A DNA stretch of 64,000 nucleotides from Candidatus Gemmiger stercoripullorum (GCA_019119365.1 DWXD01000035.1:9271-73270), one strand, 5' to 3'. Numbered from the stretch's first letter, positions 45,386 to 63,285 are shown. Notes: generated by a model not told the origin, from the sequence alone. A program made the numbers and translations.

Positions 45386-45424
45386 GGGGAAACACCCGCC
45401 TTTCTGTTCTGTCTGCAGCGTAGC

Positions 45425-46658: not shown

Positions 46659-46916
46659 ATGAAACTGATCAACATTGGCTTTGGCAACCTGGTCAACGCC
46701 GACCGCCTTGTAGCGGCCGTCAGCCCGGAATCGGCGCCCATCAAGCGCATCGTGCAGGAGGCCAAGGAGCGCGGCGCCGCCATTGACGCCACCTACGGCC
46801 GCCGCACCCAGGCGGTGCTCATCATGGATTCGGACCATGTGGTGCTTTCGGCTTTCCCGCCGGAAAAGCTGCTGGCCCGTGCCGAGGACGGCAAAGACCC
46901 CGCCCATGGGCAGTGA
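46659..46916 (+). CDS. remA: RemA/DUF370-family regulator
   Basis: [28 protein letters not shown]. Confidence 0.93.
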
Positions 46917-47559: not shown

Positions 47560-49821
47560 TTGCCCATGATCGCCAGGGTGGCGGTGAACGACGCCACCAT
47601 CCACTTTGATAAGCTTTACTCCTACCGCGTGCCGCCAGAGCTGGAAGCGCAGCTGTGGCCGGGCGGGATCGTGCTGGTGCCGTTTGGCCGCGGCGACGCC
47701 CCGCGCATGGCCGTTGTGCTCGAGACAGGCAGCGAGGACGAACCTTCTCCCAAGCTCAAAAGCGTGCTGGCGGCCGCGCCGGAGGACGCCCGCCTGACGC
47801 CCGATTTGCTCGAGCTCGTCCGTTTTTTGAAGGACCGCTATTTCTGCACCTGGTATGAGGCGGTCAAGGCGGTCATCCCTTACGGCGCGCAGTACCGCCC
47901 CGGCGTCAAGGACGGCAGGCCGGTTGTGCAGAGCCGCCTGACCCGCCCGGTCGAGCAGGTCTACGAGCTGGCGGCCCCCCTGCCGGAAAAACCGAAACCC
48001 GGCCCGCGCCAGAAAATGGCGGCCGACCTGCTGCAGGCGGCCGGGACCCTGACCCGCCGCGAGCTGGAAGAGCAGGGCGTTGCCAAAACGACGCTGGACG
48101 CCTTGTGCAAAAAAGGCGTTCTGCGCGTCAGCGAGCGGTACAAATCGCTCGATTTGTTCGCTTCGATCCCGTTCGACCCGCAGCCGGTGGAGCTTTCCGC
48201 CGAGCAGCAGGCCGCCTATGACCAGCTGGCCGCGGACCTTGCGGCCGGCAGCCCGCGCGCGGCGCTGCTTTACGGCGTCACGGGCAGCGGCAAAACGTCG
48301 GTGTTTGTCAAGCTGATCGAGCGCACGCTGGAACTGGGCCGCCGCGCCCTTGTGCTTGTGCCGGAGATCGGCCTGACGCCGCAGATGATCCGCCGCCTCA
48401 AGTCGATGTTCGGCAGCCGCCTGGCCGTGCAGCATTCGGCCCTCAACAACACCGAGCGCCTTTTGCAGTGGCGGATGATCCAGCGCGGTGACGCCGATAT
48501 CGTCGTCGGCACCCGCAGCGCGGTCTTTGCGCCGCTGCAAAACATCGGGCTCATCATCCTGGATGAAGAACAGGAGCACACCTACCAGAGCGAATCTGCG
48601 CCGCGCTATTCGGCGCACGAGGTCGCCCGCAAGCGCGCCGCGGCCGAAAACGCGCTGCTCGTCTTCGCTTCGGCCACGCCGCGCACCGAAACGACCTTTG
48701 CCGCCCAGAGCGGGCGTATTCGAATGGTGACGCTCAAAAACCGTTACGGCGGCCGCCCGCTGCCCGGCGTCGAGTTTGCCGACATGCGCGCCGAACTCGC
48801 CTCCGGCAACCCGCGCGAGGTCAGCGCCCGCCTGGCCGAGGAGCTGGCCGAAAACCTGCGCCGCGGAGAGCAGAGCATTTTGCTGCTCAACCGCCGCGGC
48901 TACAACACGGTCGCGATGTGCACCGACTGCGGCGAGGTTCTCAAGTGCCCCAACTGCAGCGTGCCGCTCGTCTACCACAAAAACCGCGCGGCGCTTTTGT
49001 GCCACCACTGCGGCCATACGGTGCACCCCGCGCCCGCGCTGTGCCCGGCGTGCGGCGGCAAGCTCGCGTACAGCGGCTTCGGCACTCAGCGCGTGGAGGA
49101 GGAATTGCAGCAGCTGCTGCCCACAGCGCGCATCCTGCGCATGGACCAGGATTCCACCACCCAGAAAAACGCGCACGAACAGATGCTGGCCCGCTTTGCC
49201 AGGCAGGAGTATGACATCCTGCTTGGCACACAGATGGTCGCCAAAGGGCTGGACTTTGAAAAAGTCACGCTCGTCGGCGTTCTTGGCATCGATTCGATGC
49301 TGTTCGGGCAGGGATTCCGCGCGTATGAGAGCGTGTTCAGCCTCATCACCCAGGTCGTCGGCCGCGGCGGCCGCGCCGACCTGCCCGGCCGCGCGCTGAT
49401 CCAGACCGCCGTGCCCGGCCACCCGGTGCTGCAGCTGGCCGCCAGGCAGGATTACGCCGCCTTTTATAAAGAGGAAATCGCGTTCCGCAAACTCTGCCTT
49501 TATCCGCCGTACTGCTCCTTCTGCGTCGTCGGGTTTATCGGCGCGCAGGACGGCGCGGTGTTTACGGCCGCGCACCGCTTCGGCCAGCTGCTCGCGCAGC
49601 AGGCGGCCGCACACCCGGGCCTGCCGCTGCGCATCCTGGGCCCTGCGCCGATGAACATTGCGATGCTCGGCGGAAAATACCGCTACAAGCTCACCCTGAA
49701 ATGCCGCAACGACGCGAAATTCCGTGCGCTGATGCGCGCGGCGCTCGACGCCTACGCCGCCGAAAAGCTGCCTGCCAAAGCCACGGTGACGCTGGATTTC
49801 AATTCGGACGGCGATATTTGA
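47560..49821 (+). CDS. priA: Primosomal protein N'
   Basis: GVTGSGKT, LVPEIGLTPQ, DEEQE, SATP, LNRRGY, two Cys-pair zinc sites, GTQMVAKGLDF, TQVVGRGGR. Confidence 0.96.
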   Translation: MPMIARVAVNDATIHFDKLYSYRVPPELEAQLWPGGIVLVPFGRGDAPRMAVVLETGSEDEPSPKLKSVLAAAPEDARLTPDLLELVRFLKDRYFCTWYEAVKAVIPYGAQYRPGVKDGRPVVQSRLTRPVEQVYELAAPLPEKPKPGPRQKMAADLLQAAGTLTRRELEEQGVAKTTLDALCKKGVLRVSERYKSLDLFASIPFDPQPVELSAEQQAAYDQLAADLAAGSPRAALLYGVTGSGKTSVFVKLIERTLELGRRALVLVPEIGLTPQMIRRLKSMFGSRLAVQHSALNNTERLLQWRMIQRGDADIVVGTRSAVFAPLQNIGLIILDEEQEHTYQSESAPRYSAHEVARKRAAAENALLVFASATPRTETTFAAQSGRIRMVTLKNRYGGRPLPGVEFADMRAELASGNPREVSARLAEELAENLRRGEQSILLLNRRGYNTVAMCTDCGEVLKCPNCSVPLVYHKNRAALLCHHCGHTVHPAPALCPACGGKLAYSGFGTQRVEEELQQLLPTARILRMDQDSTTQKNAHEQMLARFARQEYDILLGTQMVAKGLDFEKVTLVGVLGIDSMLFGQGFRAYESVFSLITQVVGRGGRADLPGRALIQTAVPGHPVLQLAARQDYAAFYKEEIAFRKLCLYPPYCSFCVVGFIGAQDGAVFTAAHRFGQLLAQQAAAHPGLPLRILGPAPMNIAMLGGKYRYKLTLKCRNDAKFRALMRAALDAYAAEKLPAKATVTLDFNSDGDI

Positions 49822-49844: not shown

Positions 49845-50363
49845 ATGGCTCTTCGCACCATTGTACAGGACGGCGACCCGATCCTGAAAAAAGTCTGCCG
49901 CCCCGTCGTCAAGTTTGACGACCGCCTCGGCACGCTGCTCGACGATATGCAGGAAACGCTGCTTGATGCCAACGGCCTCGGCCTTGCCGGGCCGCAGGTC
50001 GGCACGATGCGGCGGCTGTTCATCTGCCTGGATGACCGCGATATGCCCGAAGACGTCCCGGCCGGTTACGAGTATAAATTCATCGAATTCATCAACCCCG
50101 AGATCCTGGAGCGCAGCGAGGAGACGGTCGAACTGTATGAGGGCTGCCTCTCTTTCCCGGGGCATAACGGCGCGGTCACGCGCGCCAAGCATGTCAAGGT
50201 CAAGGCGCAGGACCGCCATGGCGAATGGTTCGAGATGGAAGCCGACGATATGCTCGCCCGCTGCATCCAGCACGAGAACGACCACCTCGACGGCGTTACG
50301 ATCATGGACCGCGCCACCCATTTCTATGAGGACGACTACCCCGAAGGGGAGGACGAAGAATAA
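49845..50363 (+). CDS. def: Peptide deformylase
   Basis: GLGLAGPQVG, EGCLS, QHENDHLDG; RBS AGGAGG. Confidence 0.96.
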   Translation: MALRTIVQDGDPILKKVCRPVVKFDDRLGTLLDDMQETLLDANGLGLAGPQVGTMRRLFICLDDRDMPEDVPAGYEYKFIEFINPEILERSEETVELYEGCLSFPGHNGAVTRAKHVKVKAQDRHGEWFEMEADDMLARCIQHENDHLDGVTIMDRATHFYEDDYPEGEDEE

Positions 50364-51283
50364 TGCGCATCCTGTTTATGGGGACGCCGGACCTTGCGGC
50401 CGAAAGCCTTGGCGCGCTGATCGCCGCCGGGCATGAGATCGTCGGCGTGTTCACCCGCGCCGATAAGCCGGTCGGCCGCAAACAGGTGCTGACCGCCCCG
50501 CCGGTCAAGCAGCTGGCGGGGCAGCACGGCATCCCGGTCTGGCAGCCTGCGACGCTGCGGGACGGCGAAGCGGAAAAAGTGTTCCGCGCCTTGCAGCCGG
50601 ACCTCGTCGTCGTGGTTGCCTATGGCCGTATTCTGCCGCCGGAGCTTTTGCACATCGCGCCGCTGGGCTGCATCAACCTGCATGTCTCGCTGCTGCCCAA
50701 ATACCGCGGCTCGGCCCCGATCCAGTGGGCCGTGCTCAACGGCGACAAAGAGACCGGCGTGACCATCATGCAGCTGGACGAAGGCTGCGACACCGGCGAT
50801 ATCCTTCTGGTCGAACCGGTCGCCATCGGCCCGGAAACGACAAGCGGCGAACTGTTCGACGAGGTCAGCGCCATCGGCGCAAAGACGCTCGTGCGCGCGG
50901 TCGAGCTGCTCGGCGCCGGGCAGCTGCGCCCGCGCCCGCAGGACAGCGCCCTGGCCACCCAGGCCCCGCCGCTGACCAAGGAAATGGCGCGCTTCACATT
51001 TGCCGAACCGGCGGCCCACCTGCACAACTGGGTGCGCGGCATGAACCCCTGGCCGGTCGCCTTCTTTGAGCAGGACGGCAAAAAGATCAAGGTGCTCGCA
51101 AGCCGCACGGCCGAAAACCCGGACCACGCCGCCCCCGGGACCATCCTGTCTCTCAAGCCGCTGACCGTGGCCTGCGCCGAAGGCGCACTGCAGCTGCTGA
51201 CCGTCACGCCGGAAGGCGGCCGCCCGATGGAGGGCACCGCCTGGGCGGCCGGCCGCCGCCTGCATGCGGGGGACAGCTTGTGA
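50363..51283 (+). CDS. fmt: Methionyl-tRNA formyltransferase
   Basis: FMGTPD, VVAYGRIL, NLH.SLLP.YRG.APIQ, GVTIM..D.G.DTG. Confidence 0.96.
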   Translation: MRILFMGTPDLAAESLGALIAAGHEIVGVFTRADKPVGRKQVLTAPPVKQLAGQHGIPVWQPATLRDGEAEKVFRALQPDLVVVVAYGRILPPELLHIAPLGCINLHVSLLPKYRGSAPIQWAVLNGDKETGVTIMQLDEGCDTGDILLVEPVAIGPETTSGELFDEVSAIGAKTLVRAVELLGAGQLRPRPQDSALATQAPPLTKEMARFTFAEPAAHLHNWVRGMNPWPVAFFEQDGKKIKVLASRTAENPDHAAPGTILSLKPLTVACAEGALQLLTVTPEGGRPMEGTAWAAGRRLHAGDSL

Positions 51284-52599
51284 CCGCGCGCTATCTCGCT
51301 GTGCGGGCGCTGCTCCACCAGGAACAGGCCGGATACGCCAACCTTGTGCTGGACGCCGAACTGCGCCGCTGCGCCCCGCCGCTGCCCGCGCGGGAGGCGG
51401 CGTTTGCCGCCCGCATCTTCTATACGGTACTGGAGCGCCAGCATCTGCTTGACTGGATGCTTGGCCGCTACCTCAAAAAGCCGGTCGCGAAACTGGACGC
51501 GCCGGTACGCGCGATCCTGCGCGCCGGGCTGGCGCAGGCCTGCTTTATGGCGGTGCCGCTGCCGGCCGCCGTCAACGAATCGGTCAAGCTGACCCGCGCG
51601 TATGGCAAATCAAGCGCTTCCGGCATGGTCAACGCCGTGCTGCGCCGCGCCGCGGCGCTGAAACCGCAGGCCGCTGATTTTAAGGACCTGCCGGGGCGGC
51701 TGGAGATTTATTACAGCCTTTCCACCCCGGTGGCCGCATTGCTGGCCGGGCAGTACGGGGCGGAGGCGCAGGATATCGCGGCGGCGTTTTACGCCCCGCA
51801 GCCTACCTGGATACGCGTCAACACACTCAAAACAACCGACGCCGCCCTCGCCGAAGCGCTGAGAGGGGAGGGCTGCGAAGTCTCTCCCGGCCCCTGGCCC
51901 CACTGCCTGCGGGTGGGCTTCCCGGCGTCCCCGGCCGCCACCGAAGCCTTTGCGCGCGGCGAGTACCATGTGCAGGGCCTGCCCAGCCAGCTGGCCGCCG
52001 AATGTATCGGCGCGCAGCCGGGCATGCGCGTGCTGGACCTGTGCGCTGCGCCGGGCGGCAAAAGCCTGACCATGGCCGAAGCCATGCGGGACGAGGGCGA
52101 ACTCCTGGCAGGGGAGGCGGTCCCCGCCCGCCTGCCGCTGCTGGAGCAGGCGTTCGCGCGGTGCGGTGTGCGCTGTGCGCGCGCGTTCGGCGGCGATGCC
52201 TCCCGATCGGACCCGGCCCTGGCGGCCCGCCCGTTTGACCGCGTGCTGTGCGATGTGCCGTGCTCCGGCCTCGGCGTGATCGGTAAAAAGCCGGACATCC
52301 GCTATAAGGACCTGGCCGGGCTGGACGATTTGACGGCGCTGCAGGCCGCGATATTGCAAAACGGCGCTTCGTATCTTGCCCCGGGCACCAGGCTCGTCTA
52401 TTCGACCTGCACGATCAACCGCGGTGAAAACGAGGCGGTCGTGCGCGCTTTCCTGGAAAAAGAACCGAACTTTGTTCTTGAAAAACCGGAAATGAGCCTG
52501 CCCGGCGCGCAGGACACCGGTTTCGGCACGCTGTTCCTGCCGCACCGGACCGGTACCGATGGCTTCTTTGTGGCGGTGCTTGCCAAAACCAAAGGCTGA
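51280..52599 (+). CDS. rsmB: 16S rRNA m5C967 methyltransferase RsmB (Sun)
   Basis: NusB-like N-terminus, DLCAAPGGKS, DVPCSGLG, YSTCT. Confidence 0.94.
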   Translation: MTARYLAVRALLHQEQAGYANLVLDAELRRCAPPLPAREAAFAARIFYTVLERQHLLDWMLGRYLKKPVAKLDAPVRAILRAGLAQACFMAVPLPAAVNESVKLTRAYGKSSASGMVNAVLRRAAALKPQAADFKDLPGRLEIYYSLSTPVAALLAGQYGAEAQDIAAAFYAPQPTWIRVNTLKTTDAALAEALRGEGCEVSPGPWPHCLRVGFPASPAATEAFARGEYHVQGLPSQLAAECIGAQPGMRVLDLCAAPGGKSLTMAEAMRDEGELLAGEAVPARLPLLEQAFARCGVRCARAFGGDASRSDPALAARPFDRVLCDVPCSGLGVIGKKPDIRYKDLAGLDDLTALQAAILQNGASYLAPGTRLVYSTCTINRGENEAVVRAFLEKEPNFVLEKPEMSLPGAQDTGFGTLFLPHRTGTDGFFVAVLAKTKG

Positions 52600-52684: not shown

Positions 52685-53746
52685 ATGGACCCCGTATGCC
52701 TGACAGACCTGACCCTGCCGGAACTGACAGAATACCTGGCACAGCTGGGTCAACCGGCTTTCCGTGCCAAACAGATCTTCAAGTGGGTCCACCAGAAGCT
52801 CATCACCGATCTGGACGCAATGACCGACCAGCCCAAAGCGCTCCTGCAGCAGCTGCATGAACGCTGCACGCTGGCGGCGCCTGCGATCCGCCGCCGCCAG
52901 CAGTCCAAGGACGGCACCGTCAAGTATCTGCTTGAGATGGCGGACGGCAACTGCATTGAAACGGTGCTCATGCGCTACCACTACGGCAACACCGTGTGCG
53001 TGTCCACCCAGGTGGGCTGCGCGATGGGCTGCCGGTTCTGCGCTTCGACCCAGGCGGGCCGCGTGCGCGACTTGACCCCCGGCGAGATCGCCGCCGAAAT
53101 CTATACCGCCCAGCGTGACACCGGCGAGCGCGTCTCCCATATCGTGCTCATGGGCATTGGGGAACCGCTGCACAACTTTGACAATGTGCTCAAGTTCCTC
53201 ACGCTGATCTCCTGCCCGGAAGGCGTCAACATCGGCATGCGCAACATCAGCCTGTCCACCTGCGGCCTTGTGCCCAAAATCGACGAGCTGGCCAGCCACA
53301 AACTGCAGCTGACGCTGTCCATCTCGCTGCACGCGCCGGACAATGCCGTGCGCAGCAGCATGATGCCGGTCAACGATGCATACCCGCTTGAAAAGCTGAT
53401 CCCTGCCTGCCGCCGGTACCAGAAGATCACCGGGCGGCGCATCAGTTTTGAATACTCGATGGTCCGCGGCGTCAACGACTCCCCGGCCATGGCGCGCAAG
53501 CTTGCGGATTTGATCCGCGGTATGGGCGCGCACGTCAATCTCATCCCGATCAACCCGGTGGACGGCAGCCCGTATTCCGCCACCGACGAGGAGAATATCC
53601 GCCGGTTCCGCCAGATGCTTGAAGACCTCGGCGTCAACGCCACTGTGCGCCGCCGTCTCGGCGCGGATATCAGCGCGGCCTGCGGGCAGCTGCGGCGCGA
53701 GGATGCCGCGGCCGCCCGGGAAGAAAAGGAAAGGAAAGATCCATGA
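52685..53746 (+). CDS. rlmN: Dual-specificity RNA methyltransferase RlmN (radical SAM)
   Basis: CVSTQVGCAMGCRFC, MGIGEP, ISLHA, NLIP.NP, ISAACGQL. Confidence 0.96.
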   Translation: MDPVCLTDLTLPELTEYLAQLGQPAFRAKQIFKWVHQKLITDLDAMTDQPKALLQQLHERCTLAAPAIRRRQQSKDGTVKYLLEMADGNCIETVLMRYHYGNTVCVSTQVGCAMGCRFCASTQAGRVRDLTPGEIAAEIYTAQRDTGERVSHIVLMGIGEPLHNFDNVLKFLTLISCPEGVNIGMRNISLSTCGLVPKIDELASHKLQLTLSISLHAPDNAVRSSMMPVNDAYPLEKLIPACRRYQKITGRRISFEYSMVRGVNDSPAMARKLADLIRGMGAHVNLIPINPVDGSPYSATDEENIRRFRQMLEDLGVNATVRRRLGADISAACGQLRREDAAAAREEKERKDP

Positions 53747-54504
53747 AGATCGCAGGTCAAACCGACATCGGAAGCTGCCGGCAGGAAAACCAGGACAATT
53801 TCTGTGCCCGGCAGCTGACGGACGGCTCCGGCTGGGGGGTCGTGTGCGACGGTATGGGCGGGGTCAAGGGCGGCCGTGTGGCTTCCTCCATCGCCACCGC
53901 CAGCCTGATGCAGTATTTTGACCGCCAGCTGCGCACCCTGCGCCATGGCGAGGAAAAGCAGTTCATCCTGCACGGGTTCGACATCACCAACCGCGCCGTG
54001 TACGAGAAAGCGACCTCTGACCCCGAAATGCTCGGCATGGGCACAACCGGCGTCTGTGCGTATGTATTCGGCAATATGGCCCACGTCGTCCATGCGGGCG
54101 ATTCCCGCGCCTATCTCTGGCGGGGCGGCGAAATGACCCAGCTCACGCGGGACCATTCTATGGTCCAGCAGCTGGTGGACAGCGGCCAGATCACGCGGGA
54201 ACAGGCAGCCATGCACCCGCAGAAAAACCTTATCACCCGCGCGCTGGGGGTCTCGTCCTTCATCGTGCCGGAATATAACCGCTGTGAAGTGAAGGCGGGC
54301 GATATCCTGCTGCTGTGCACCGACGGGCTGACCAATATGGTCCCCGACGCCGAGATCGCCCTGATCCTGCAGGAGACCGCATTTTTTGACGCACCCCGCA
54401 TCCTGATCGACCGCGCGCTGCGCGGCGGCGGGCAGGACAACATCACCGTGCTGCTGTTGGGCGTGGAAAGTACCGATCAAACAAGGGAGGACGCAAATGG
54501 ATAA
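53743..54504 (+). CDS. prpC: PP2C-family Ser/Thr phosphatase (Stp/PrpC)
   Basis: TDIG..R..NQD, VCDGMGG, GMGTT, HAGDSRAY, LCTDGLT, GG.DNIT. Confidence 0.92.
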   Translation: MKIAGQTDIGSCRQENQDNFCARQLTDGSGWGVVCDGMGGVKGGRVASSIATASLMQYFDRQLRTLRHGEEKQFILHGFDITNRAVYEKATSDPEMLGMGTTGVCAYVFGNMAHVVHAGDSRAYLWRGGEMTQLTRDHSMVQQLVDSGQITREQAAMHPQKNLITRALGVSSFIVPEYNRCEVKAGDILLLCTDGLTNMVPDAEIALILQETAFFDAPRILIDRALRGGGQDNITVLLLGVESTDQTREDANG

Positions 54505-56419
54505 CCTGATTGGCAAAAAGCTGGACGGCCGCTATCTGATCGAAAGCCTGATCGGCGTGGGCGGCATGGCCAACGTGTATAAAGGCCGCGATGTGCGCAC
54601 CAACAACGCCATTGCGGTCAAGGTGCTCAAGGAAGAATTCCTGGGCAACGAGGAGCTGGTACGCCGCTTCAAGAATGAGTCCAAGGCCATCTCGATCCTC
54701 GACCATCCCAATATCGTCAAGGTCTACGACGTCTCCGTTACCGACCAGCTGCAATATATCGTGATGGAGTATATCGACGGCATCACGCTGAAAGAATACC
54801 TCAAGCAGCGCGGCGGCGCGCTGACCTGGAAAGAGGTCGTGCATTTCGCCACGCAGGTGCTCGGCGCGCTGGACCACGCCCATTCCAAGGGGATCGTCCA
54901 CCGCGACGTCAAGCCGCAGAACATCATGCTGCAGGCCGACGGTTCCATCAAGATGATGGATTTCGGCATCGCCCGCTTCTCCCGCGCGCAGAGCCAGACT
55001 GTCAGCGACAAGGCCATCGGCTCGGTGCATTATATCAGCCCCGAGCAGGCCAAGGGCGACCGCACCGATGCGCGCACCGACATCTACTCGGTCGGCGTCA
55101 TGCTGTACGAAATGCTGTCCGGCAGCCTGCCGTTTGACGGCAGCGGCACGGTGTCCATCGCCATCATGCAGATCTCCGAAAAGCCGAAGCCGCTGGCCCA
55201 GGTGGCGCCGAACGTGCCGGAAGGCCTGCGCCAGATCACCGAGAAGGCGATGGAGAAGGACCCGGCCGACCGCTACCAGAGCGCGGCCGAAATGCTCGAA
55301 GCCATCCAGGCGTTCAAGCAGAACCCCAGCATCCGCTTTGAGTATGAGTATAATACCCAGGATTCTCCCAGCAAGACCATCAACAAGGTTGTCACCAGCA
55401 GCCACAGCGCCACCAAGAGCGGGATCAGCACCCAGCAGGCACGGCGCACCGGCACCATCCCGCCCGTGGGGAAAGGCAAAGGCGTGAAAAAGTCAGCGGC
55501 CCGCCGCGGCGCGGCGGTCAAGGAGCGGCGCTTCTCCGTGCTGCCCATCTTCTTTGGTATGGCGGTGGCCTTTGTCATCGGTGCGGCCATCCTTGTGTAC
55601 CTGATCTTTACCAATTCCAGCAACCCGCTGTTCTCCAACCGCGCCAACGTCCAGCTCATCGACTTTGTCGGCCAGACCGAGGATGAATTCCGCGCTTCCG
55701 ATTATTTCGCCCAGCTCACGCCGGACATCGTCTATGAGTATAACTCAATGTACCCGGAAGGGACCATCTTCCAGCAGACGCCGGCCGCAGGGCGTACCGT
55801 CAAGGAGCGTCAGAAGATCACGCTCAAGGTCAGCCGCGGCACCGAGATTATCAGCCTGCCCGATGTGGCCGGTTATGACCGCGATACCGCCAAGCAGACG
55901 CTGGTTGATCTGGGCGTCTCCGTGTCGACCCGGCGCGAGACAAACGACAGCGTAGCCGAAAACACGGTCATCCGCACCGAACCGGCGGCGGGCAGCCAGG
56001 TCGAAGGCGGCTCCACCGTCACGATGTATGTGGCCAAGCCCACCCGCACGACCACGGCCTATGTGCCCTCGGTCCAGGGGCTTGACGAGGCCTCCGCCCG
56101 CAGCTCGGTCAACGCGGCCAACCTGGTCCCGGCCGTGCGTGAGGTCAGCAGCAGTCTGCCGGAAGGCACCGTCATCAGCCAGAGCCCGTCTGCCGGCGAG
56201 CAGGTCTCGCTGTACAGCGTGGTCGTGCTGCAGGTCTCGAGCGGCGTGCCTTCGGCCACCCCGGCCCCGACCCCGGTCCCGCAGGTCAACGGCGACCCCA
56301 ATACAGTGCTTAAAGAATGGTGGGAGGACCTCGGCAACGGCAACAGCGAGCGCCGCTGGAAGACCGGCGACGGCAACGTTTACGGCGAGCAGAGCGGCTT
56401 CTTGTACCACGAGGGATGA
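54497..56419 (+). CDS. prkC: PASTA-domain Ser/Thr kinase (PknB/PrkC)
   Basis: GVGGMANVY, AVK, HRDVKPQN, DFGIAR, YISPEQ, TM helix, about 3 PASTA-like repeats. Confidence 0.94.
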   Translation: MDNLIGKKLDGRYLIESLIGVGGMANVYKGRDVRTNNAIAVKVLKEEFLGNEELVRRFKNESKAISILDHPNIVKVYDVSVTDQLQYIVMEYIDGITLKEYLKQRGGALTWKEVVHFATQVLGALDHAHSKGIVHRDVKPQNIMLQADGSIKMMDFGIARFSRAQSQTVSDKAIGSVHYISPEQAKGDRTDARTDIYSVGVMLYEMLSGSLPFDGSGTVSIAIMQISEKPKPLAQVAPNVPEGLRQITEKAMEKDPADRYQSAAEMLEAIQAFKQNPSIRFEYEYNTQDSPSKTINKVVTSSHSATKSGISTQQARRTGTIPPVGKGKGVKKSAARRGAAVKERRFSVLPIFFGMAVAFVIGAAILVYLIFTNSSNPLFSNRANVQLIDFVGQTEDEFRASDYFAQLTPDIVYEYNSMYPEGTIFQQTPAAGRTVKERQKITLKVSRGTEIISLPDVAGYDRDTAKQTLVDLGVSVSTRRETNDSVAENTVIRTEPAAGSQVEGGSTVTMYVAKPTRTTTAYVPSVQGLDEASARSSVNAANLVPAVREVSSSLPEGTVISQSPSAGEQVSLYSVVVLQVSSGVPSATPAPTPVPQVNGDPNTVLKEWWEDLGNGNSERRWKTGDGNVYGEQSGFLYHEG

Positions 56420-57279
56420 TGGCGTATATCACAAAGGGCATCGGCGGCTTTTATTATGTGCGCACGGACAGCGGCGTTGTCGAATGCCGTGCCCGCGGGA
56501 TCTTCCGCAAACGCGGCGTCACGCCGGTGGCGGGGGATAACGTGCGCCTTTCGGCGGACGGCACGACCATCGACGAGATCCTGCCGCGCAAAAATGTCTT
56601 TATCCGTCCGCCAGTCGCCAACCTGGACGTGCTGTTCATTGTGGCCAGCACCACCCAGCCGGTGCCCAGCACCCGCATTTTGGACGAACTGACGGCTGCC
56701 GCTGTGTATAAAGACGTGCAGCCGGTGCTCGTCATCACCAAGGCGGACCTGGCGGCCGCCGATCAGCTGGTCGCCTGCTACGCCCAAAGCATGATCCCGA
56801 TCGTGCTGCTGCACTACGATACCGGCGAGGGCCTGGATACGCTGCGCGGCTACATCCGCGGGCATTTGTGCGCGTTTTGCGGCAATTCCGGCGTCGGCAA
56901 ATCGACGCTGCTCAATGCGCTGGACCCCGCCCTGCACCGCGAGACCGGCGGCATCAGCCAGAAGCTCGGTCGCGGCCGCCACACCACCCGTGAAGTCGAG
57001 ATCTTTGAGAGCTGCGGCGGCCGCATTGCGGATACCCCCGGCTTTGCCAGCCTCGAGGCGCAGAAGCTCGCCCGCATCCCCAAGGAAGACCTGCAGCACG
57101 CTTTTCCGGAGTTCGGGCCCTATTTCGGCCGCTGCCGTTTTACCGGCTGCTCGCACCGCAGCGAGACCGGCTGCGCGGTGCGCGCTGCTTTGGCCGAAGG
57201 GAAGATCGCGCCCAGCCGCTATGAAAGTTACCTTGCCATGTATGAGGAAGCCAGCCAACGAAAGGAGTGGGAGCGGTGA
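56416..57279 (+). CDS. rsgA: Ribosome small subunit-dependent GTPase RsgA
   Basis: ITKAD, GNSGVGKSTL, GRHTT, DTPG, C.F..C.H..E.GC; ATG 56416 overlaps the kinase stop. Confidence 0.95.
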   Translation: MMAYITKGIGGFYYVRTDSGVVECRARGIFRKRGVTPVAGDNVRLSADGTTIDEILPRKNVFIRPPVANLDVLFIVASTTQPVPSTRILDELTAAAVYKDVQPVLVITKADLAAADQLVACYAQSMIPIVLLHYDTGEGLDTLRGYIRGHLCAFCGNSGVGKSTLLNALDPALHRETGGISQKLGRGRHTTREVEIFESCGGRIADTPGFASLEAQKLARIPKEDLQHAFPEFGPYFGRCRFTGCSHRSETGCAVRAALAEGKIAPSRYESYLAMYEEASQRKEWER

Positions 57280-57935
57280 CGCCGCTGCAGCAGGCCGCGC
57301 CCGTCCGGGCCGTCGTTCTCTCGGCGGTGCCGGTCAGCGCTTCCATGGCCGCGTATCTGGAACCGGGCGCGTTCATCGTTGCCTGTGACGCAGGCTACCG
57401 CAACGCCGAAACGCTCGGCGTTGTGCCGGACCTGATTGTGGGCGATTTCGATTCCGCGCCCCAGCCCCCCGTGCGGCACGAGCACACCATCGTGCTGCCC
57501 CATGTCAAGGATGATACCGACACCCACTTTGCCGCCCGCTGGCTGTGGCAGCACGGCTGCCGGGAAGTGACCTTCCTCGGCGCGCTGGGCGGCCAACGTT
57601 TTGAACATACGGTCGCCAACCTGCATACGGCGCTGTTTTTGGCCAAAAACGGCGTGCAGGTTCTGCTGGCGGACGAGCGCAGCGAGCTGCGCATCCTCTG
57701 CCCGGGGCAGCCGATGACGCTGGAACGAAAAGGCTGGACCTATCTTTCGCTGTTTCCGCTCGACGGTCCGTTGACCGGCGTCGAAGAGCAGGGGGTGTTT
57801 TACCCGCTGCAGGACGCTGTGCTCACGCCCGATTATCCGCTCGGCGTCAGCAACGAGTTCACGGCCCCGCAGGCTGTGCTCTCCTGCCGCGCCGGTCATG
57901 GGCTGGTCGTCTTGTCCCGCGCAGACACGCTCTAG
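57276..57935 (+). CDS. thiN: Thiamine pyrophosphokinase
   Basis: CDAG, GDFDS, KDDTDT, ALGG.R..H...N, GVSNEF; GTG start overlaps the rsgA stop. Confidence 0.93.
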   Translation: MTPLQQAAPVRAVVLSAVPVSASMAAYLEPGAFIVACDAGYRNAETLGVVPDLIVGDFDSAPQPPVRHEHTIVLPHVKDDTDTHFAARWLWQHGCREVTFLGALGGQRFEHTVANLHTALFLAKNGVQVLLADERSELRILCPGQPMTLERKGWTYLSLFPLDGPLTGVEEQGVFYPLQDAVLTPDYPLGVSNEFTAPQAVLSCRAGHGLVVLSRADTL

Positions 57936-57941
57936 CCGCGG

Positions 57942-57969
57942 AACCGCATACCGCCCGCCTGCATAGTAT
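57942..57969 (+). promoter_or_regulatory. Candidate mother-cell (sigma-K/sigma-E-like) promoter of spoVM
   Basis: aACc-16 nt-CATAgtaT, resembling the B. subtilis sigma-K pattern mACm-N16-CATAnnnT. Confidence 0.4.
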
Positions 57970-58037
57970 GGCACGGTAAGGTTTCCCGGCCGCACGCTTC
58001 AGGGCGTGCCCGGCCCCGCTGAAAGGGAGGTGCCGTT

Positions 58038-58106
58038 ATGCGGATCGTCATCGTCAAATGTCCGCCCGCGCTGCGCTGGCTGCTGCGGGCCGTCTTTAAA
58101 GTCTGA
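58038..58106 (+). CDS. spoVM: Stage V sporulation protein SpoVM (22 aa; below the ORF-track cutoff)
   Basis: RBS AAAGGGAGG 7 nt before ATG; MRIVIVKCPPALRWLLRAVFKV*, with Lys7 and Pro9 as in B. subtilis SpoVM (MKFYTIKLP...); follows thiN as in B. subtilis; has its own terminator. Confidence 0.85.
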   Translation: MRIVIVKCPPALRWLLRAVFKV

Positions 58107-58113
58107 AAAACTG

Positions 58114-58158
58114 CGCCGCCCGGCACGACTTTCCTCGTGCCGGGCGGCGTTTTATTTT
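58114..58158 (+). terminator. Intrinsic terminator after spoVM
   Basis: CGCCGCCCGGCACGA-CTTTCC-TCGTGCCGGGCGGCG then TTTTATTTT (15-bp stem). Confidence 0.88.
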
Positions 58159-58179
58159 GTCCTGCCTTCGCATATAGAT
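58150..58179 (+). promoter_or_regulatory. Candidate sigma-E promoter of sipL-spoIVA
   Basis: ttTTATT-14 nt-CATATAGAT, resembling the sigma-E pattern (-35 ..ATAtt, 14 nt, CATAca.T). Confidence 0.45.
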
Positions 58180-58227
58180 GCAGCGAAAGCCGGCAACGGC
58201 CTGTACATTGCAAAAGGGAGGACTTGC

Positions 58228-59778
58228 ATGATGGAACTGAAGGTGCTCAACAACACCCTGACCGCCTACAGCGGCCGGTGGGAGACGAGGCTGGAGCTGC
58301 CGGTGGAGGCGGAGATCTTGATCCCCGATTACCTTCCCGCCGTGTTCAAGATCGTCAAATGCCGCCTGGAACCGGTCGTTTTGCACAACGACCTGACCGG
58401 CGCCCGCTGGCAGGGCGACGGCTACCTGCGCTGTACGGTGTTTTACCAGTCGGACGAGGCCGGGGCGCGGCTGTGGCGCACCGAACAGAAGGTGCGCTTT
58501 GAAAAGACGGCCGAGCTCCCCGCCGGCCGCTATGCGCCCGGTCCCGCGGCGCTGGGCGGGGAGACCGAATACTGCAACTGCCGCGCCGTCAGCGAGCGCC
58601 GCATCGACATCCGCGGCGCGTATACGCTGAGCGTGGCCGCGCTGGCGCTGGAAGAGCAGGAGCTGCCCGCCTCGCTGTCCGGCTGCGGGATCGAGCAGCG
58701 CCCGCTCACTTTGTGCGGCGTCACACCGGCTGCGGCGGCCGAAAAGCTCTATACGGCCCAAACCACCCTGCCGCTGCCCGGCGACGGCGAGGCCATTCTG
58801 GAAATCGGCGGCGTCTATGTGCCGCAGAGCGCTACCGTACAGACCGGCCAGGTCAGCGCCCAGGGCACGCTGCGGCTGGAAGCCGTCTGGCGCGCCGCCG
58901 GGGAGGAAGAATTCACCGTGCGGCAGAAGGAACTGACGGTGCAGCAGACAATGGAGGTGGAGAACGCCGCCGAAGGGGACACCTGCTGCTGTTGGGGCGA
59001 GGTGCTTTCGGCCACGCTGACCGCCCCGGAAACAGGCCGCGGCGATCCCGAGCTCACGGTCCAGTGGAAGCTGCATGCCGAGCTGTGGCGGCCTGTTCAC
59101 AGCGCGCTGGTGGCCGACGCGTATTCGACCGAGTGCGAGACCAGGCTGACGATGGCGCCCTGCCGCCTGCTGCAGACCAGCGCCGTCGTGGAGGAAACGG
59201 CGCTGGCTGCGGCGGAGGATGACCTGCCCGACCCGGATACGGAGGTGCGCGGCTGCTTTGTGACGCTGGGGCCGCCCCAGGCGGAAGCGGCGGAAGGCGC
59301 GCCGCAGCCTGCCGTGCGCCTGGGCGGGCGCGGCGTGGCCCATGTGCTGTGCGCCGACAGCCGCGGCGAGCTGACCTGTTATGACAAGCCGTTTTCCTGG
59401 CAGCTGCCCGAAACCTGGCCCGGCGTTCCGGAAACATTTGTGCCGCGCCTGTCCGCGGCGGCGGTGCGCGTCAATTCCAGCCGCAGCGGCGGCCGGCTGC
59501 GCGTGGAGGCGGAGATCGCCGTGCACGGTATGCTGCTGGCCGTGCAGAGCTGCGAGGCGGTCGGCGCTGTCGAACCGGGGGAAGCTTTTGACAAGGGCGC
59601 GGACGGCCCGGCGCTGTATCTCTATTACGCCGAAGCGGGCGAACGACTGTTCGACATAGCCAAGCGTTACCATGCCCGGGTGCGGGACCTGGCGGCGGCC
59701 AACCGGCTGGAAAGCGGACCGGAAGCCCCGCAGACGACGGCGGAGGCCGCCTGCCTGCTGGTCCCGGCCGCACGGTGA
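58228..59778 (+). CDS. sipL: SPOCS/DUF3794 + C-terminal LysM spore coat morphogenetic protein (SipL-like)
   Basis: 516 aa; PDY.P...KIVK N-terminal pattern, repeated beta-rich SPOCS-like segments, C-terminal LysM-like YYAEAGERLFDIAKRYH..V..LAAAN; RBS AAGGGAGG; directly upstream of spoIVA. Confidence 0.72.
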   Translation: MMELKVLNNTLTAYSGRWETRLELPVEAEILIPDYLPAVFKIVKCRLEPVVLHNDLTGARWQGDGYLRCTVFYQSDEAGARLWRTEQKVRFEKTAELPAGRYAPGPAALGGETEYCNCRAVSERRIDIRGAYTLSVAALALEEQELPASLSGCGIEQRPLTLCGVTPAAAAEKLYTAQTTLPLPGDGEAILEIGGVYVPQSATVQTGQVSAQGTLRLEAVWRAAGEEEFTVRQKELTVQQTMEVENAAEGDTCCCWGEVLSATLTAPETGRGDPELTVQWKLHAELWRPVHSALVADAYSTECETRLTMAPCRLLQTSAVVEETALAAAEDDLPDPDTEVRGCFVTLGPPQAEAAEGAPQPAVRLGGRGVAHVLCADSRGELTCYDKPFSWQLPETWPGVPETFVPRLSAAAVRVNSSRSGGRLRVEAEIAVHGMLLAVQSCEAVGAVEPGEAFDKGADGPALYLYYAEAGERLFDIAKRYHARVRDLAAANRLESGPEAPQTTAEAACLLVPAAR

Positions 59779-59794
59779 GAGAGGGGGAGAGAAC

Positions 59795-61267
59795 GTGACC
59801 CAGGAACAGATCTACAAAACCATCGCCCGGCGCACCGGCGGCGATATCTATATCGGCGTGGTGGGGCCGGTGCGCAGCGGCAAAAGCAGCTTTATCAAAC
59901 GCTTTGCCGAACAGATGCTGCTGCCGCACATTGCCAGCGAGGCCCAGCGCACCCGCGCGCAGGACGAACTGCCGCAGTCGGCCGCCGGGCGTACGATCAT
60001 GACGACCGAACCCAAATTTATCCCCGAGCAGGCGGTCGAGGTTGAGCTTTCGGGCGGCGGCAGCTTCCGCGCCCGCATCATCGACTGTGTCGGCTATATG
60101 GTGGACGGCGCGCTCGGGCATGAAGAGGACGGCGCGCCGCGCCTGGTCAAAAGCCCCTGGTTTGAAGAAGCCGTTCCGTTCGACCAGGCAGCCGAGACCG
60201 GGACACGCCGCGTCATCCGCGAGCACGCCACCATCGGGCTGGTCATGACGACTGACGGTTCCGTCGCAGACCTGCCGCGCCAGGCCTATGTTGAAGCGGA
60301 GCGGCGCATCATTGCCGAACTGGAGGAGATCGGCAAGCCGTATCTGATTTTGCTCAACTGCGTATCGCCCGAAAGCGAGGCGAGCCGCGCCCTGGCCGCC
60401 AGCCTGGAGGAAAGCTATGGCCGCCCGGTCGTGCCGCTCAACTGTCTGGAAGTCACGGCCGCGCAGATCGACGAGATCCTGCAGAAACTTCTGTATGAAT
60501 TCCCCGTGCGGGAGATGGCCGTGGCCATGCCGCCCTGGGTCACGATGCTTGAACCCGGCCACTGGCTGCAGAGCGCCATTTATGAAGCCCTGCTCGCTTT
60601 TGGCGCCCGGACGCACAAGATGGGCCAGGTGCGCGGCAACCTGCCGGCTGACTGTGAGTATATCACCGGCGCGGCGCTGACCGGCATGGACCTGGCCACC
60701 GGCAGCGTGCGGCTCAAGCTCACGCTGGCACAGGATCTCTTTTATAAGATACTCGGCGAACAGACCGGCCTTACGATCGTCGACGAGGCCAGCCTGCTGC
60801 CCTGCGTCGTGGAGCTGGCCAAAGCCAGGCGCGCCTACGAAAAGATCCGCGGCGCGCTCGAGCAGGTCGAAGCGGGCGGATATGGCATCGTGATGCCGGG
60901 GCTGGAAGAACTCAAACTGGAAGAACCGCAGATCGTGCGGCAGGGCGGGCAGTACGGCGTGCGGCTGTGCGCCAGCGCGCCGTCTTTGCACATCATGCGC
61001 GCGACCATCCACACCGAACTTTCGCCCACCGTCGGCAGCGAGGAACAGGGCGAGGAACTCATCCGTGACCTGCTCAAAGACTTTGAAGGCGACCCCGGCA
61101 AGCTGTGGGGGACGAACATCTTCGGCAAAAGTCTCAACGAGCTGGTCAACGAAGGGCTGCAGGCCAAGCTGCTGCACATGCCGCAGTCGGCGCGCAGCCG
61201 CCTGCAGACAACGCTCGAGCGCATCATCAACGAAGGCTGCGACGGCCTGATCTGCATTCTTTTGTGA
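59795..61267 (+). CDS. spoIVA: Stage IV sporulation protein A (coat basement-layer ATPase)
   Basis: IARRTGGDIYIGVVGPVRSGKSSFIK, QDELPQS..GRTIMTTEPKF, IDCVGY, C-terminal IINEGC.GLICIL; GTG start 59795. Confidence 0.97.
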   Translation: MTQEQIYKTIARRTGGDIYIGVVGPVRSGKSSFIKRFAEQMLLPHIASEAQRTRAQDELPQSAAGRTIMTTEPKFIPEQAVEVELSGGGSFRARIIDCVGYMVDGALGHEEDGAPRLVKSPWFEEAVPFDQAAETGTRRVIREHATIGLVMTTDGSVADLPRQAYVEAERRIIAELEEIGKPYLILLNCVSPESEASRALAASLEESYGRPVVPLNCLEVTAAQIDEILQKLLYEFPVREMAVAMPPWVTMLEPGHWLQSAIYEALLAFGARTHKMGQVRGNLPADCEYITGAALTGMDLATGSVRLKLTLAQDLFYKILGEQTGLTIVDEASLLPCVVELAKARRAYEKIRGALEQVEAGGYGIVMPGLEELKLEEPQIVRQGGQYGVRLCASAPSLHIMRATIHTELSPTVGSEEQGEELIRDLLKDFEGDPGKLWGTNIFGKSLNELVNEGLQAKLLHMPQSARSRLQTTLERIINEGCDGLICILL

Positions 61268-61287
61268 GGGAGAGGGGAGTGGAGCCG

Positions 61288-61518
61288 ATGCGTCTGCGCT
61301 GGCCCTGCGGGTCTTTACGGCGGGACGCGGCCGCCCGCCGGGCCCGCGCCGCGGCGGTCGAATCGCTGCGGCAGACCTACCGCGCGCTGCGCGCGAACGA
61401 CAGCGCTTTTCAGATGGCGCAGGACCGCCTGGCGGTCGAACAGCTGATCTATGAACGCGCGGCGCTGGAATGCCGCTGCCGCGCGCTGCTGCGTGAACTG
61501 CGGGGAGGGCGCGCATGA
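61288..61518 (+). CDS. yaaL: YaaL/DUF2508-family protein
   Basis: F.MAQD..AVEQLIYE..ALE.R...LLRE pattern; coupled to bofA by ATGA overlap. Confidence 0.7.
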   Translation: MRLRWPCGSLRRDAAARRARAAAVESLRQTYRALRANDSAFQMAQDRLAVEQLIYERAALECRCRALLRELRGGRA

Positions 61519-61766
61519 CGCCCGCCGCCTGGGCGGCCGCCGCTTTGTGCACGGTGGCGGTGGGGCGCGCGGCAGCGGCCGGGCGCCGCCCGCTGTCAGC
61601 GCTGTTCGGCAGCGCTTTGTGCGGGGCGGCGGGGCTTGCGGCGGTGGCGCTGCTTTCGCCGCTGACCGGCGTCAGCCTGCCGCTCAACCCGCTGACCGGG
61701 TTTGCCGCCGCCGTGCTGGGCCTGCCCGGTGTGGTCACGCTGCTTTTTCTGCAGGTCCTGCTTTGA
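61515..61766 (+). CDS. bofA: Pro-sigma-K processing inhibitor BofA family
   Basis: Small hydrophobic protein with G.SLPLNPLT...AAVLGLPGV..L, typical of the BofA C-terminus. Confidence 0.8.
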   Translation: MTPAAWAAAALCTVAVGRAAAAGRRPLSALFGSALCGAAGLAAVALLSPLTGVSLPLNPLTGFAAAVLGLPGVVTLLFLQVLL

Positions 61767-61776
61767 AACGGCCAAC

Positions 61777-61818
61777 AAAAAGCCCGGCGCAGGGGGTGTC
61801 CCTGTGCCGGGCTTTTTG
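61777..61818. terminator. Bidirectional terminator between bofA and rnpB
   Basis: AAAAAGCCCGGCGCAGGG-GGTGT-CCCTGTGCCGGGCTTTTT. Confidence 0.85.
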
Positions 61819-61832
61819 TATGGTGAAGAATA

Positions 61833-62209
61833 AACGACTGGACCGTAAGCCGGGTTCTGTATTAAACGACGATCTATCTTGACCTTGCGTTGCCGCAAGG
61901 CTCCGCCCGCGGGCCGCGGGGGTCCGCCGGCATGCCATCTCCGGGACGTGCGAGGCTTCCACATATGTCCCATACGGATGTTGCTTCTGACAGGGTTTAC
62001 ATAGCCGCAAAGTCGCCAGTGCGCTGGTGAGCTCTTACCTCGCCTTTCCATCCTTACCGCGCCAAAGCACGGCGGTTTCTTTCTGTTGCACTTTCCCTGG
62101 GGTCGCCCCCGGCTGCCGTTAGCAGTTGCCATGCCTCTGTGAAGCCCGGACTTTCCTCAGGCCGCGGCTGTCGCCAGCCGGCGGCCCGCCGCCGTATGTT
62201 CCACTCGTT
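61833..62209 (-). ncRNA. rnpB: RNase P RNA, bacterial type A
   Basis: Minus strand GAGGAAAGTCCGGGC, CAGGGAAAGTGCAACAGAAAG.AACCGCC, AAGG..GAAA, GGTAAGAGC, TAAACC, AGCAA, and 3' ACAGAACCCGGCTTA; 5'/3' P1 pairing. Confidence 0.97.
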
Positions 62210-62245: not shown

Positions 62246-62250
62246 GCGGT

Positions 62251-62279
62251 TTGCAAGCACTGGCGGTTTGTGCTATAAT
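62251..62279 (+). promoter_or_regulatory. Sigma-A promoter of the RluA-family gene (divergent from rnpB)
   Basis: TTGCAA-17 nt-TATAAT with TG extension. Confidence 0.75.
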
Positions 62280-62319: not shown

Positions 62320-63285
62320 GTGGCAGCGCTGTGTTATACGGTGCCGCCCGCGGCGGACGGCGTCCGCCTGGGCGTGTTCCTGCGCGCGCAGGGGGTCAGC
62401 GCCTCCTGCATCAAGGCGGTCAAGCATCAGGGCGAAGGCTTTTTTGCCGACGGCCGCCCGCTGCACACCGACCAGCCGGTCCGCGCCGGGCAGCGCATCA
62501 CCTTTGCGCTGCCGCCGGAACCGCCCACCGCGGTGCAGCCGCAGCCGGTACCGTTTTCCCTGCTGTACGAAGATGAATTTACCGCCCTGGTGGATAAGCC
62601 AGCCGGGATCGCGGTGCACCCCACGCTGAACCACAGCGGCGGCACGCTGGCCAACGGCTGGCTGTACCACCTGCAGCAGCAGGGGCGGGCCGGGGTATTC
62701 CGGCCGGTCAACCGCATCGACAAAAACACCAGCGGCCTGGTGCTGCTGGCGCAGAACGCGTTTTCGGCCCCGGCGCTGGCGGCCAGCGCGGAGAAATGCT
62801 ACCTCGCGCTGGCGGAGGGCGTCATAAGCGCAGACCTCTGCGAGATCGACGCGCCCATCGCCCGCCGCGGCGATTCGATCATCGGCCGCTGTGTGCGGGC
62901 GGACGGCAAGCCCAGCCTGACCCGTGTGCGGGTGCTGGCGGCGGGCGGGGGGCACACCCTGCTGGCCTGCCGCCCGGTCACGGGCCGCACCCACCAGATC
63001 CGCGTACATCTTTCATCCCTGGGGCATCCGCTGGCCGGGGATACGCTTTACGGCGGCCACACCGGCTTGCTGGCGCGGCATGCGCTGCACTGCGCGGCCA
63101 TGCGGTTCAAAGACCCTGTCACCGCGCAGGTGCGGGCGTTTTACTGCCCGGAACCGGCCGATATGGCGTCGGCCCTCGCCGCCTGCGGCCTGCCGCGGGG
63201 CGAAGCGCTGCGCGCTTTGCTGGCGGACGAATGTCCGCGCTTTTCTCAATGCACGCGCCCGGCGCGGGAAGGAGAACACCTTTGA
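62320..63285 (+). CDS. RluA/RluD-family pseudouridine synthase
   Basis: VDKPAG..VHP, VNRIDKNTSGLVL, TGRTHQIRVH....GHPLAGD..YG, LHC. Confidence 0.94.
   Translation: MAALCYTVPPAADGVRLGVFLRAQGVSASCIKAVKHQGEGFFADGRPLHTDQPVRAGQRITFALPPEPPTAVQPQPVPFSLLYEDEFTALVDKPAGIAVHPTLNHSGGTLANGWLYHLQQQGRAGVFRPVNRIDKNTSGLVLLAQNAFSAPALAASAEKCYLALAEGVISADLCEIDAPIARRGDSIIGRCVRADGKPSLTRVRVLAAGGGHTLLACRPVTGRTHQIRVHLSSLGHPLAGDTLYGGHTGLLARHALHCAAMRFKDPVTAQVRAFYCPEPADMASALAACGLPRGEALRALLADECPRFSQCTRPAREGEHL

Follow-up and report, generated by a model that had tools for sequence, protein, structure and literature searches.

Why should the genes for the spore coat basement layer, which are dispersed in the model organisms, lie side by side in a gut bacterium? 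In a 64,000-nucleotide stretch of Candidatus Gemmiger stercoripullorum (GCA_019119365.1, DWXD01000035.1:9271-73270; referred to here as the window), a spoVM-like open reading frame (ORF), a sipL-like gene, spoIVA, a yaaL-like gene, and bofA occupy positions 58038 to 61766. A short note made from the sequence alone (the original prediction) had described this block as a lineage-specific mother-cell operon that links coat initiation to the control of pro-sigma-K. The coordinates, spacings, adjacency, and common orientation of the five genes were confirmed. We consider it likely that the locus consists of two mother-cell sporulation units, a monocistronic spoVM and a sipL-spoIVA-yaaL-bofA operon, with a gene-order history of two layers. 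Our verdict is that the locus is genuine but unremarkable: well-known sporulation genes in an operon arrangement that is new.

The window has a G+C content of approximately 65% and spans C6:9271-73270 in an assembly of 2.2 Mb and 70 contigs, with an estimated completeness of 90%. The close relatives recovered in searches with the 516-amino-acid (516-aa) product of the sipL-like gene were labeled Gemmiger, Subdoligranulum, or Candidatus Cibiobacter and included Gemmiger gallinarum DSM 109015. The NCBI taxonomy places Gemmiger in the Oscillospiraceae, class Clostridia, and the GTDB order that contains it is presumably Oscillospirales.

Gene order in Gemmiger, its order, and other Clostridia

SpoIVA was found in 184 of 201 sampled genomes of the same GTDB order. 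Approximately 6 kb on either side of spoIVA was retrieved from 80 genomes; 11 were Gemmiger, 6 belonged to other genera in its family, and 63 represented another 27 families. The ORFs at these loci were searched with iterated profiles derived from the window's proteins. At the class level, SpoIVA was found in 113 of 140 genomes, and 60 loci represented approximately 50 families of other Clostridia orders, in which the SipL profile covered the region from -5 to +3.5 kb around spoIVA.

In all 12 Gemmiger loci, the window included, sipL was located on the same strand as spoIVA and no more than 250 nt upstream of it. The same spacing was detected in 33 of the 69 non-Gemmiger loci of the order, with sipL at 0.4 to 2.3 kb in 4 more, and sipL was upstream of spoIVA in 16 of the 28 sampled families, Gemmiger's own among them. 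No sipL was found beside spoIVA in other orders of Clostridia (0 of 60 loci, 0 of 30 genomes). The lack of matches there is not a failure of sensitivity, because the Pfam SPOCS model detected one three-SPOCS ORF, mostly of 510 to 560 aa, in each of these 30 genomes; where it shared a contig with spoIVA, the two were separated by 14 kb to 2 Mb. A SpoVM-like ORF with a ribosome-binding site preceded sipL in 11 of 12 Gemmiger loci, and the rest of the order contributed 13 such loci in 8 families. Outside Gemmiger's own family, prkC-rsgA(-thiN) was ahead of the cluster in six others. These comparisons show that spoVM-sipL-spoIVA is an old arrangement, common to many families of the order and absent from the sampled other orders of Clostridia. 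The position of spoVM after prkC-rsgA-thiN is its ancestral one; sipL and spoIVA moved to spoVM.

The yaaL-bofA tail has a different distribution. Both genes were present within 6 kb of spoIVA in all 12 Gemmiger loci, compared to none of the 69 other loci of the order, and the spoIVA-yaaL-bofA join had gaps of 1 to 25 nt and overlapping yaaL/bofA frames in every Gemmiger locus. The entire prkC-rsgA-thiN-spoVM-sipL-spoIVA-yaaL-bofA-rluD order was conserved in 10 of the 11 other Gemmiger genomes; the remaining one (G009) deviated only upstream of sipL. Gemmiger gallinarum DSM 109015 (G016) has this gene order. bofA was single copy in 25 of 36 searched genomes of the order, and in 22 genomes of the order outside Gemmiger it was either distant from spoIVA or carried by another contig. 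In other orders of Clostridia, one likely BofA ORF was near spoIVA, 4.4 kb away on the opposite strand. The joining of yaaL-bofA behind spoIVA is thus shown to be a later event, restricted to Gemmiger. The proposal of a lineage-specific operon consequently stands for the yaaL-bofA tail and fails for the core, which is shared among families. A recR-yaaL-bofA arrangement as the ancestral state in the order was considered and rejected; recR was within 1.5 kb of bofA in 0 of 25 loci. In the window, recR lies approximately 15 kb upstream of the coat block on the opposite strand, with no yaaL-bofA behind it.

Consistent with the proposal that spoIVA had left its usual der/gpsA neighborhood, der preceded spoIVA at 22 of the 60 loci from other orders of Clostridia and at none of the 12 Gemmiger loci or of the other 69 loci of the order. 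gpsA was within the retrieved flanks in 16 of the 60 loci from other orders, and both der and gpsA are on other contigs in the window's genome. In one genome of another order (G286, locus L110), thiN (1068-1664) is 3.3 kb upstream of spoIVA (4923-6467) on the same strand; its SPOCS protein is encoded on a different contig, and this gene order may be intermediate. The original prediction had allowed that the cluster might be already widespread and documented. It is widespread throughout the order, and no description of the sipL-spoIVA linkage was found in the searchable full-text literature, subscription-only papers being beyond reach.

Probable transcription units and predicted products

A strong hairpin and T-run directly downstream of spoVM (13 G-C pairs in a stem of 16, then TTTTATTTTG; folding energy, -37.3 kcal/mol; z, -6.75) make it probable that spoVM, at its ancestral site, is a transcription unit of its own. 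Upstream of it, all 11 Gemmiger sequences that were aligned have GCATAGTATGG or GCATACAATGG between variable flanks. The second unit would be read from a sigma-E-type promoter whose -35 region overlaps the T-run of the spoVM terminator. Its CGCATATAGATGC element, at 58169-58181, contains the octamer CGCATATA, which is identical in all 12 Gemmiger genomes; within the genus the -10-like CATATA does not vary, and the rest of the spoVM-sipL spacer is unalignable. The motifs upstream of sipL in other families (TCATATT-N13-CATATATAT in L089 and L090; TAATATT...CATACATT in L088) resemble textbook mother-cell promoters.

The gaps between sipL, spoIVA, yaaL, and bofA are 16, 20, and -4 nt, the last reflecting an ATGA overlap, and are comparably small in other Gemmiger genomes. 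The four genes are probably one transcription unit that extends from the promoter motif to a bidirectional terminator common to bofA and rnpB, which converges on bofA. In this terminator a 13-bp GC stem stands between an A-run and a T-run, with a folding energy of -44.9 kcal/mol and a z of -8.45 (0 of 200 shuffles folded equally well). A consensus scan inside the block yielded only hairpins of 5 to 6 bp, and the scan's total of 8 hits was not clearly more than in shuffled sequence (3.7 ± 2.1). The earlier description of sipL-spoIVA behind a sigma-E-like motif, continuing into yaaL-bofA up to a single terminator, was therefore upheld, the continuation as probable.

The assignment of the 516-aa protein to SipL has more behind it than its score with the SipL/SPOCS model PF12673, which it passed marginally (24.8 bits; cutoff, 23.6). 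A homologue from the genus (L013) scored 52.8 bits, and homology spanning the entire protein was found with proteins of approximately 500 to 540 aa upstream of spoIVA in other families. Gemmiger SipL is only approximately 20 to 25% identical to homologues in other families of the order. These scored 77 to 122 bits on SPOCS in two or three matched stretches, and most were above the LysM cutoff. An AlphaFold2 model built with 17 Gemmiger homologues in the input (predicted local distance difference test [pLDDT] score, 87.8; predicted template-modeling [pTM] score, 0.79) consisted of three consecutive all-beta, SPOCS-type repeats and a C-terminal LysM-like beta-alpha-alpha-beta unit (residues 463 to 513; pLDDT, 64 to 85). 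A Foldseek search of the PDB with this model returned nothing significant (best E value, 0.01; TM-scores, ≤0.1). The model agrees with the three tandem DUF3794 domains (bioRxiv 10.64898/2026.09.03.749163) and the LysM domain published for C. difficile SipL. On the strength of this chain of homology and the confident structure model, the 516-aa protein is firmly predicted to be SipL.

The predicted identity of SpoIVA is unambiguous. TIGR02836 matched residues 1 to 490 with 615.5 bits (cutoff, 459.9); PF09547, PF20438, and PF20439 were each matched full length; and a Walker A motif, GPVRSGKS (GVVGPVRSGKSS), read in the translation, predicts an ATPase. In five genomes of other Clostridia orders, spoIVA was in two pieces (model positions ~1-403/410 and 397/408-492). 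The pieces are 6 to 22 kb apart on one contig in G239 (C162) and G220 (C10) and on separate contigs in G241, G318, and G263, and the break point is nearly identical in all five, as if an intervening element occupied a recurrent site.

BofA is also a firm assignment by family model: PF07441 was matched over 73 of 75 positions (47.2 bits; cutoff, 26.1) and had only one match in the whole genome, although the narrower TIGR02862 gave 32.8 bits, under its cutoff of 53.35. The 76-aa product of the gene between spoIVA and bofA matched DUF2508 (PF10704) with 13.3 bits (E = 0.1; cutoff, 22.5), and its orthologues in the genus scored at most 19.9 bits. The name YaaL is given with the caveat that it derives mainly from the invariant position of the gene directly 5' of bofA, with overlap of the bofA start, throughout the genus, and from orthologues and synteny. 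The gene identities originally proposed thus hold, those of SpoIVA and BofA through family models, that of SipL through homologues and a structure model, and those of SpoVM (see below) and YaaL through orthologues and synteny.

By analogy with B. subtilis and C. difficile, the SpoVM helix would insert into the convex outer forespore membrane, SpoIVA would bind SpoVM and build the basement layer of the coat by polymerizing as it hydrolyzes ATP, and BofA would keep SpoIVFB inactive until a forespore signal is received, delaying pro-sigma-K processing. The putative C-terminal LysM domain of SipL would bind SpoIVA and drive encasement, as in C. difficile (Touchette 2019, PMC6436350). The C. difficile layer comprises the same three proteins, and its SipL has the same tandem SPOCS/DUF3794 repeats and a C-terminal LysM domain, where Gemmiger SipL has the LysM-like candidate unit. 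Sigma-E drives spoIVA, sipL, and spoVM in C. difficile (PMC3789822; PMC5607322), with promoters mapped upstream of spoIVA and sipL (Saujet 2013, PMC3789822), which matches the promoter-like motifs in Gemmiger. However, the C. difficile genes are dispersed (spoIVA, CD2629; sipL, CD3567; PMC3789822), whereas those of Gemmiger are contiguous and sipL-spoIVA is seemingly cotranscribed.

Clusters in other families of the order have the same gene order and strand as in Gemmiger. Their sipL-spoIVA gaps are short, sipL is preceded by sigma-E-like motifs, and prkC-rsgA-thiN is often upstream, but they lack yaaL-bofA after spoIVA, and their SpoVM and SipL proteins fit the family models far better. The B. 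subtilis orders are prkC-cpgA-rpe-thiN-spoVM and recR-yaaL-bofA. As in Gemmiger, spoVM follows thiN downstream of prkC and rsgA, and yaaL is directly 5' of bofA; compared to B. subtilis, sipL and spoIVA are inserted downstream of spoVM in Gemmiger and yaaL-bofA is detached from recR. The SpoIVA partner in Bacillus is SpoVID, not SipL.

Several points weigh against the interpretation as two mother-cell units with a two-layer history. In the survey each species was represented by one genome and the families were sampled, and short contigs may conceal adjacencies. The non-spore-forming relative Faecalibacterium, the truncated sigK, the lack of a convincing SpoIVFB in crude searches, and the low scores of most sporulation regulators, all described below, also count against it. 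The criteria for a sigma-E promoter were an ATA core at -35 and, properly spaced from it, CATAcAnT at -10; sigma-E and sigma-K promoters have a common -10 element and differ at -35 (ATA versus AC) (Saujet 2013, PMC3789822). The -10 element upstream of sipL therefore does not separate the two sigma factors, and the Gemmiger -35 element is weak, with TTATT instead of ATATT. Because of this weakness, the motif is graded as a putative sigma-E-type promoter, unproven. Cotranscription is well supported by sequence, and it and sigma-E dependence are predictions from sequence. Of the two domains expected in the 516-aa protein, SPOCS passed its family cutoff and LysM (PF01476) fell short, with 16 bits against a cutoff of 20.9. 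The YaaL-like protein of the window was under every family threshold, and its SpoVM-like peptide had no match to Pfam PF08183 or NCBIfam NF033436 (SpoVM_broad).

Sporulation capacity and competing explanations

It could be argued that the locus is a remnant or a set of repurposed genes, in a genus that no longer sporulates and keeps the genes for other reasons or is losing them. Gemmiger and Subdoligranulum are described as non-spore-forming. Faecalibacterium, a close relative of Gemmiger, is non-spore-forming in its emended description. Other evidence points the same way. Most sporulation regulators in the genome were under the NCBIfam equivalog cutoffs, though their best matches were to the right family, and such scores fit a divergent lineage. 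The sigK ORF (C21:1367-2035, minus strand) stops at ...GISRSYV, approximately 19 residues (SRLEKRAL...) short of close relatives, and abuts at least 1.37 kb of foreign-like DNA with 34 to 42% G+C, in a genome of approximately 65% G+C, that reaches the contig end (C21:1-2035). A search of the assembly for the missing 3' end matched only sigE and sigG; the truncation could mean that the gene is dead, that a skin-type element intervenes, or that the assembly was joined there. Alignment of the ORF with B. subtilis sigma-K begins at residue 2, and its product likely has a pro-sequence. Crude searches with B. subtilis sequences found no convincing SpoIVFB in the genome, the lone candidate being a 160-aa M50 ORF on contig C48 (26.4 bits; Pfam cutoff, 27.2), and similarly crude motif and tblastn searches found no small acid-soluble spore proteins.

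Related genomes gave a mixed picture. Matches to sigK were partial in G008 (C1:844583-844939; residues 1 to 116) and G010 (C54:182687-183076; residues 1 to 127), which suggests that the gene is split at a different position in these two. G007, a 2.0-Mb genome of the same genus estimated to be 100% complete, had no match to SipL or SigK and may represent a Gemmiger species that lost sporulation genes. Therefore, sporulation capacity may vary between species.

Nevertheless, several findings argue against a remnant. Pairwise ratios of nonsynonymous to synonymous substitution rates (dN/dS) within the genus were 0.03 to 0.12 for SpoIVA, 0.10 to 0.24 for SipL, 0.04 to 0.26 for BofA, and 0.08 to 0.40 for YaaL, compared to 0.02 to 0.14 and 0.07 to 0.22 for the housekeeping neighbors RsgA and ThiN. 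The four operon genes are under purifying selection in a range like that of RsgA and ThiN, and the locus is not decaying; the 16 SipL homologues from the genus were free of internal stops. The genome encodes Spo0A (240 bits; cutoff, 200), the sole sporulation regulator above its equivalog cutoff; SpoIIGA (125.7 bits with Pfam), whose gene immediately precedes sigE, sigG lying another 3 kb along; and SigF, SpoIIID, SpoVT, and SpoIIIAA, as well as SpoIIE and SpoVAD, both detected by tblastn only. spoIIGA-sigE and sigG (C6:90255-95800) are on the same contig as the coat operon, approximately 18 kb past the end of the window. Proven spore formers with skin-type elements normally have an interrupted sigK, and the assembly is incomplete. 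Thus, a remnant or repurposed locus seems unlikely. The suggested sporulation capacity gained support at the gene level from this broad set of regulators and from selection on the operon; of the regulators singled out for a check, Spo0A and SpoIIGA-SigE are encoded and sigK is truncated in the assembly.

BofA inhibits the pro-sigma-K protease SpoIVFB in B. subtilis. The operon might have a new function, that of coupling the assembly of the basement layer to the pro-sigma-K checkpoint: if BofA is made from the spoIVA transcript, how much of this SpoIVFB inhibitor is present, or where, would depend on coat initiation; restraint of SpoIVFB by BofA is documented (bioRxiv 10.1101/2022.02.25.481979). 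The tight spoIVA-yaaL-bofA join in every Gemmiger locus, its absence from the 69 other loci of the order, and purifying selection on every gene speak for such coupling. However, bofA is already sigma-E dependent in B. subtilis, and joining a sigma-E unit needs no new function. A physical link between SpoIVA and BofA is not known, a clear SpoIVFB partner was not found in this genome, and a join in one genus is expected of a neutral rearrangement that became fixed. The simplest interpretation is the merging of one sigma-E regulon into one transcript, because all of these genes are sigma-E controlled in model organisms; we infer that it would provide co-timed and proportionate expression, and by this analogy it most likely implies no new mechanism. 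Regulon merging explains the layout equally well, and the proposed link between coat initiation and pro-sigma-K control was not supported; coupling is considered improbable. A similarly low probability is assigned to the broader proposal that the ancestor of the order built a dedicated basement-layer cluster, retained since its three partners need to be produced jointly, and that the Gemmiger yaaL-bofA extension keeps the sigma-K checkpoint inhibitor in step with SpoIVA, a coupling, by regulation or by assembly, of coat initiation to late gene expression in the mother cell.

The evidence for two mother-cell units also includes the 22-aa peptide MRIVIVKCPPALRWLLRAVFKV as SpoVM. Its ORF follows prkC-rsgA-thiN, has a GGGAGG ribosome-binding site 7 nt upstream, and is present in 10 of the 11 other Gemmiger genomes. 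The thiN-flanking place of the ORF is that of spoVM in B. subtilis; rpmB, the usual second neighbor of spoVM, does not adjoin it. Differences within the genus were concentrated at third codon positions (664, versus 203 at first and 97 at second positions), and 484 differing codon pairs were synonymous versus 246 nonsynonymous. The peptide keeps Pro9, reported as the sole universally conserved SpoVM residue (Ribis 2017, PMC5607322). A genus orthologue, MQIVVVKCPKALSWLLRAVFKVK, 82% identical to the window peptide, scored 26.6 bits on NF033436 (E = 4e-6; cutoff, 31), and two syntenic peptides from other families scored 41.8 and 35.7 bits, with B. subtilis SpoVM as the control at 63 to 77 bits. 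The Pfam SpoV model matched B. subtilis SpoVM yet missed both the window peptide and canonical-looking peptides of other families; this model is narrow, and NF033436 is more informative.

The ribosome-binding site, conservation in the genus, third-position variation, Pro9, and orthologue scores indicate that the 22-codon ORF is a real gene, and its product is accepted as a predicted divergent SpoVM orthologue whose own family-model test failed. It has a KCP motif in place of the KLP or KSP of other SpoVM peptides. Gemmiger SpoVM peptides are 22 to 23 aa long with invariant Cys8 and Trp14 (KCPxAxxW); those of other families are 22 to 27 aa long and mostly have K-S-P-K/R-F-L-x-G. A chance ORF or an unrelated leader peptide, which would leave the block with two of the three basement-layer partners, would account for the lack of a family match, a length four residues below the canonical one, and the absence of the usual K2 and KFL motif but not for the coding-type substitutions, ribosome-binding site, Pro9, model scores of the orthologues, and thiN-flanking site, and is very improbable.

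Surroundings of the locus and its significance

Family-model scans covered rsgA, thiN, rluD, and the five target genes. The names of genes upstream of prkC were read from translations and by comparison with the B. subtilis ylo region. A good sigma-70-like promoter is present at 62250-62279, upstream of rluD.

Table 1. Features of the window around the coat block (positions counted from the first nucleotide of the window)
Feature	Position	Strand	Basis or remark
dnaX-ybaB-recR	42704-45541	-	recR at 42704-43300
yicC-like	45771-46649	+	Name read from translation
remA-like	46659-46916	+	Name read from translation
priA	47560-49821	+	Name read from translation
fmt	50363-51283	+	Name read from translation
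rsmB	51280-52599	+	Name read from translation
rlmN	52685-53746	+	Name read from translation
PP2C phosphatase	53743-54504	+	Name read from translation
prkC	54497-56419	+	
rsgA	56419-57279	+	Family-model scan
Thiamine pyrophosphokinase (thiN)	57267-57935	+	Family-model scan
Promoter-like -10 motif upstream of spoVM, mother-cell (sigma-E/sigma-K) type, GCATAGTATGG	57961-57971	+	Conservation
spoVM-like 22-codon ORF	58038-58106	+	Orthologues, synteny
Predicted intrinsic terminator 3' of spoVM	58113-58160	+	Hairpin and T-run
sipL promoter-like region	58150-58181	+	TTTTATT (-35-like), 14-nt spacer, CATATAGAT within CGCATATAGATGC
sipL-like gene, 516 aa	58228-59778	+	SPOCS match, homologues, structure model
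spoIVA, 490 aa, GTG start	59795-61267	+	TIGR02836, Pfam
yaaL-like gene (DUF2508-like), 76 aa	61288-61518	+	Synteny, subthreshold DUF2508
bofA, 83 aa	61515-61766	+	PF07441
Predicted bidirectional intrinsic terminator, bofA (+)/rnpB (-)	61771-61824	.	Folding
RNase P RNA (rnpB), class A	61831-62207	-	218.9 bits
RluD-type pseudouridine synthase (rluD)	62320-63285		Family-model scan

The known working of the coat basement layer is unchanged by this locus, which suggests no new mechanism. The linkage conserved across a large, mostly uncultured gut order provides independent support for the SpoVM-SpoIVA-SipL interaction known from C. difficile. The paired sipL and spoIVA sequences can be used for coevolution or interface analysis, and the position directly 5' of spoIVA is a marker for divergent SipL proteins that barely pass the family models. 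Although regarded as nonsporulating, the genus keeps an intact coat-initiation operon under selection and most sporulation regulators, an argument that Gemmiger still forms spores or at least goes through the early and middle stages of the process. Persisting sporulation would bear on the transmission of these abundant gut bacteria.

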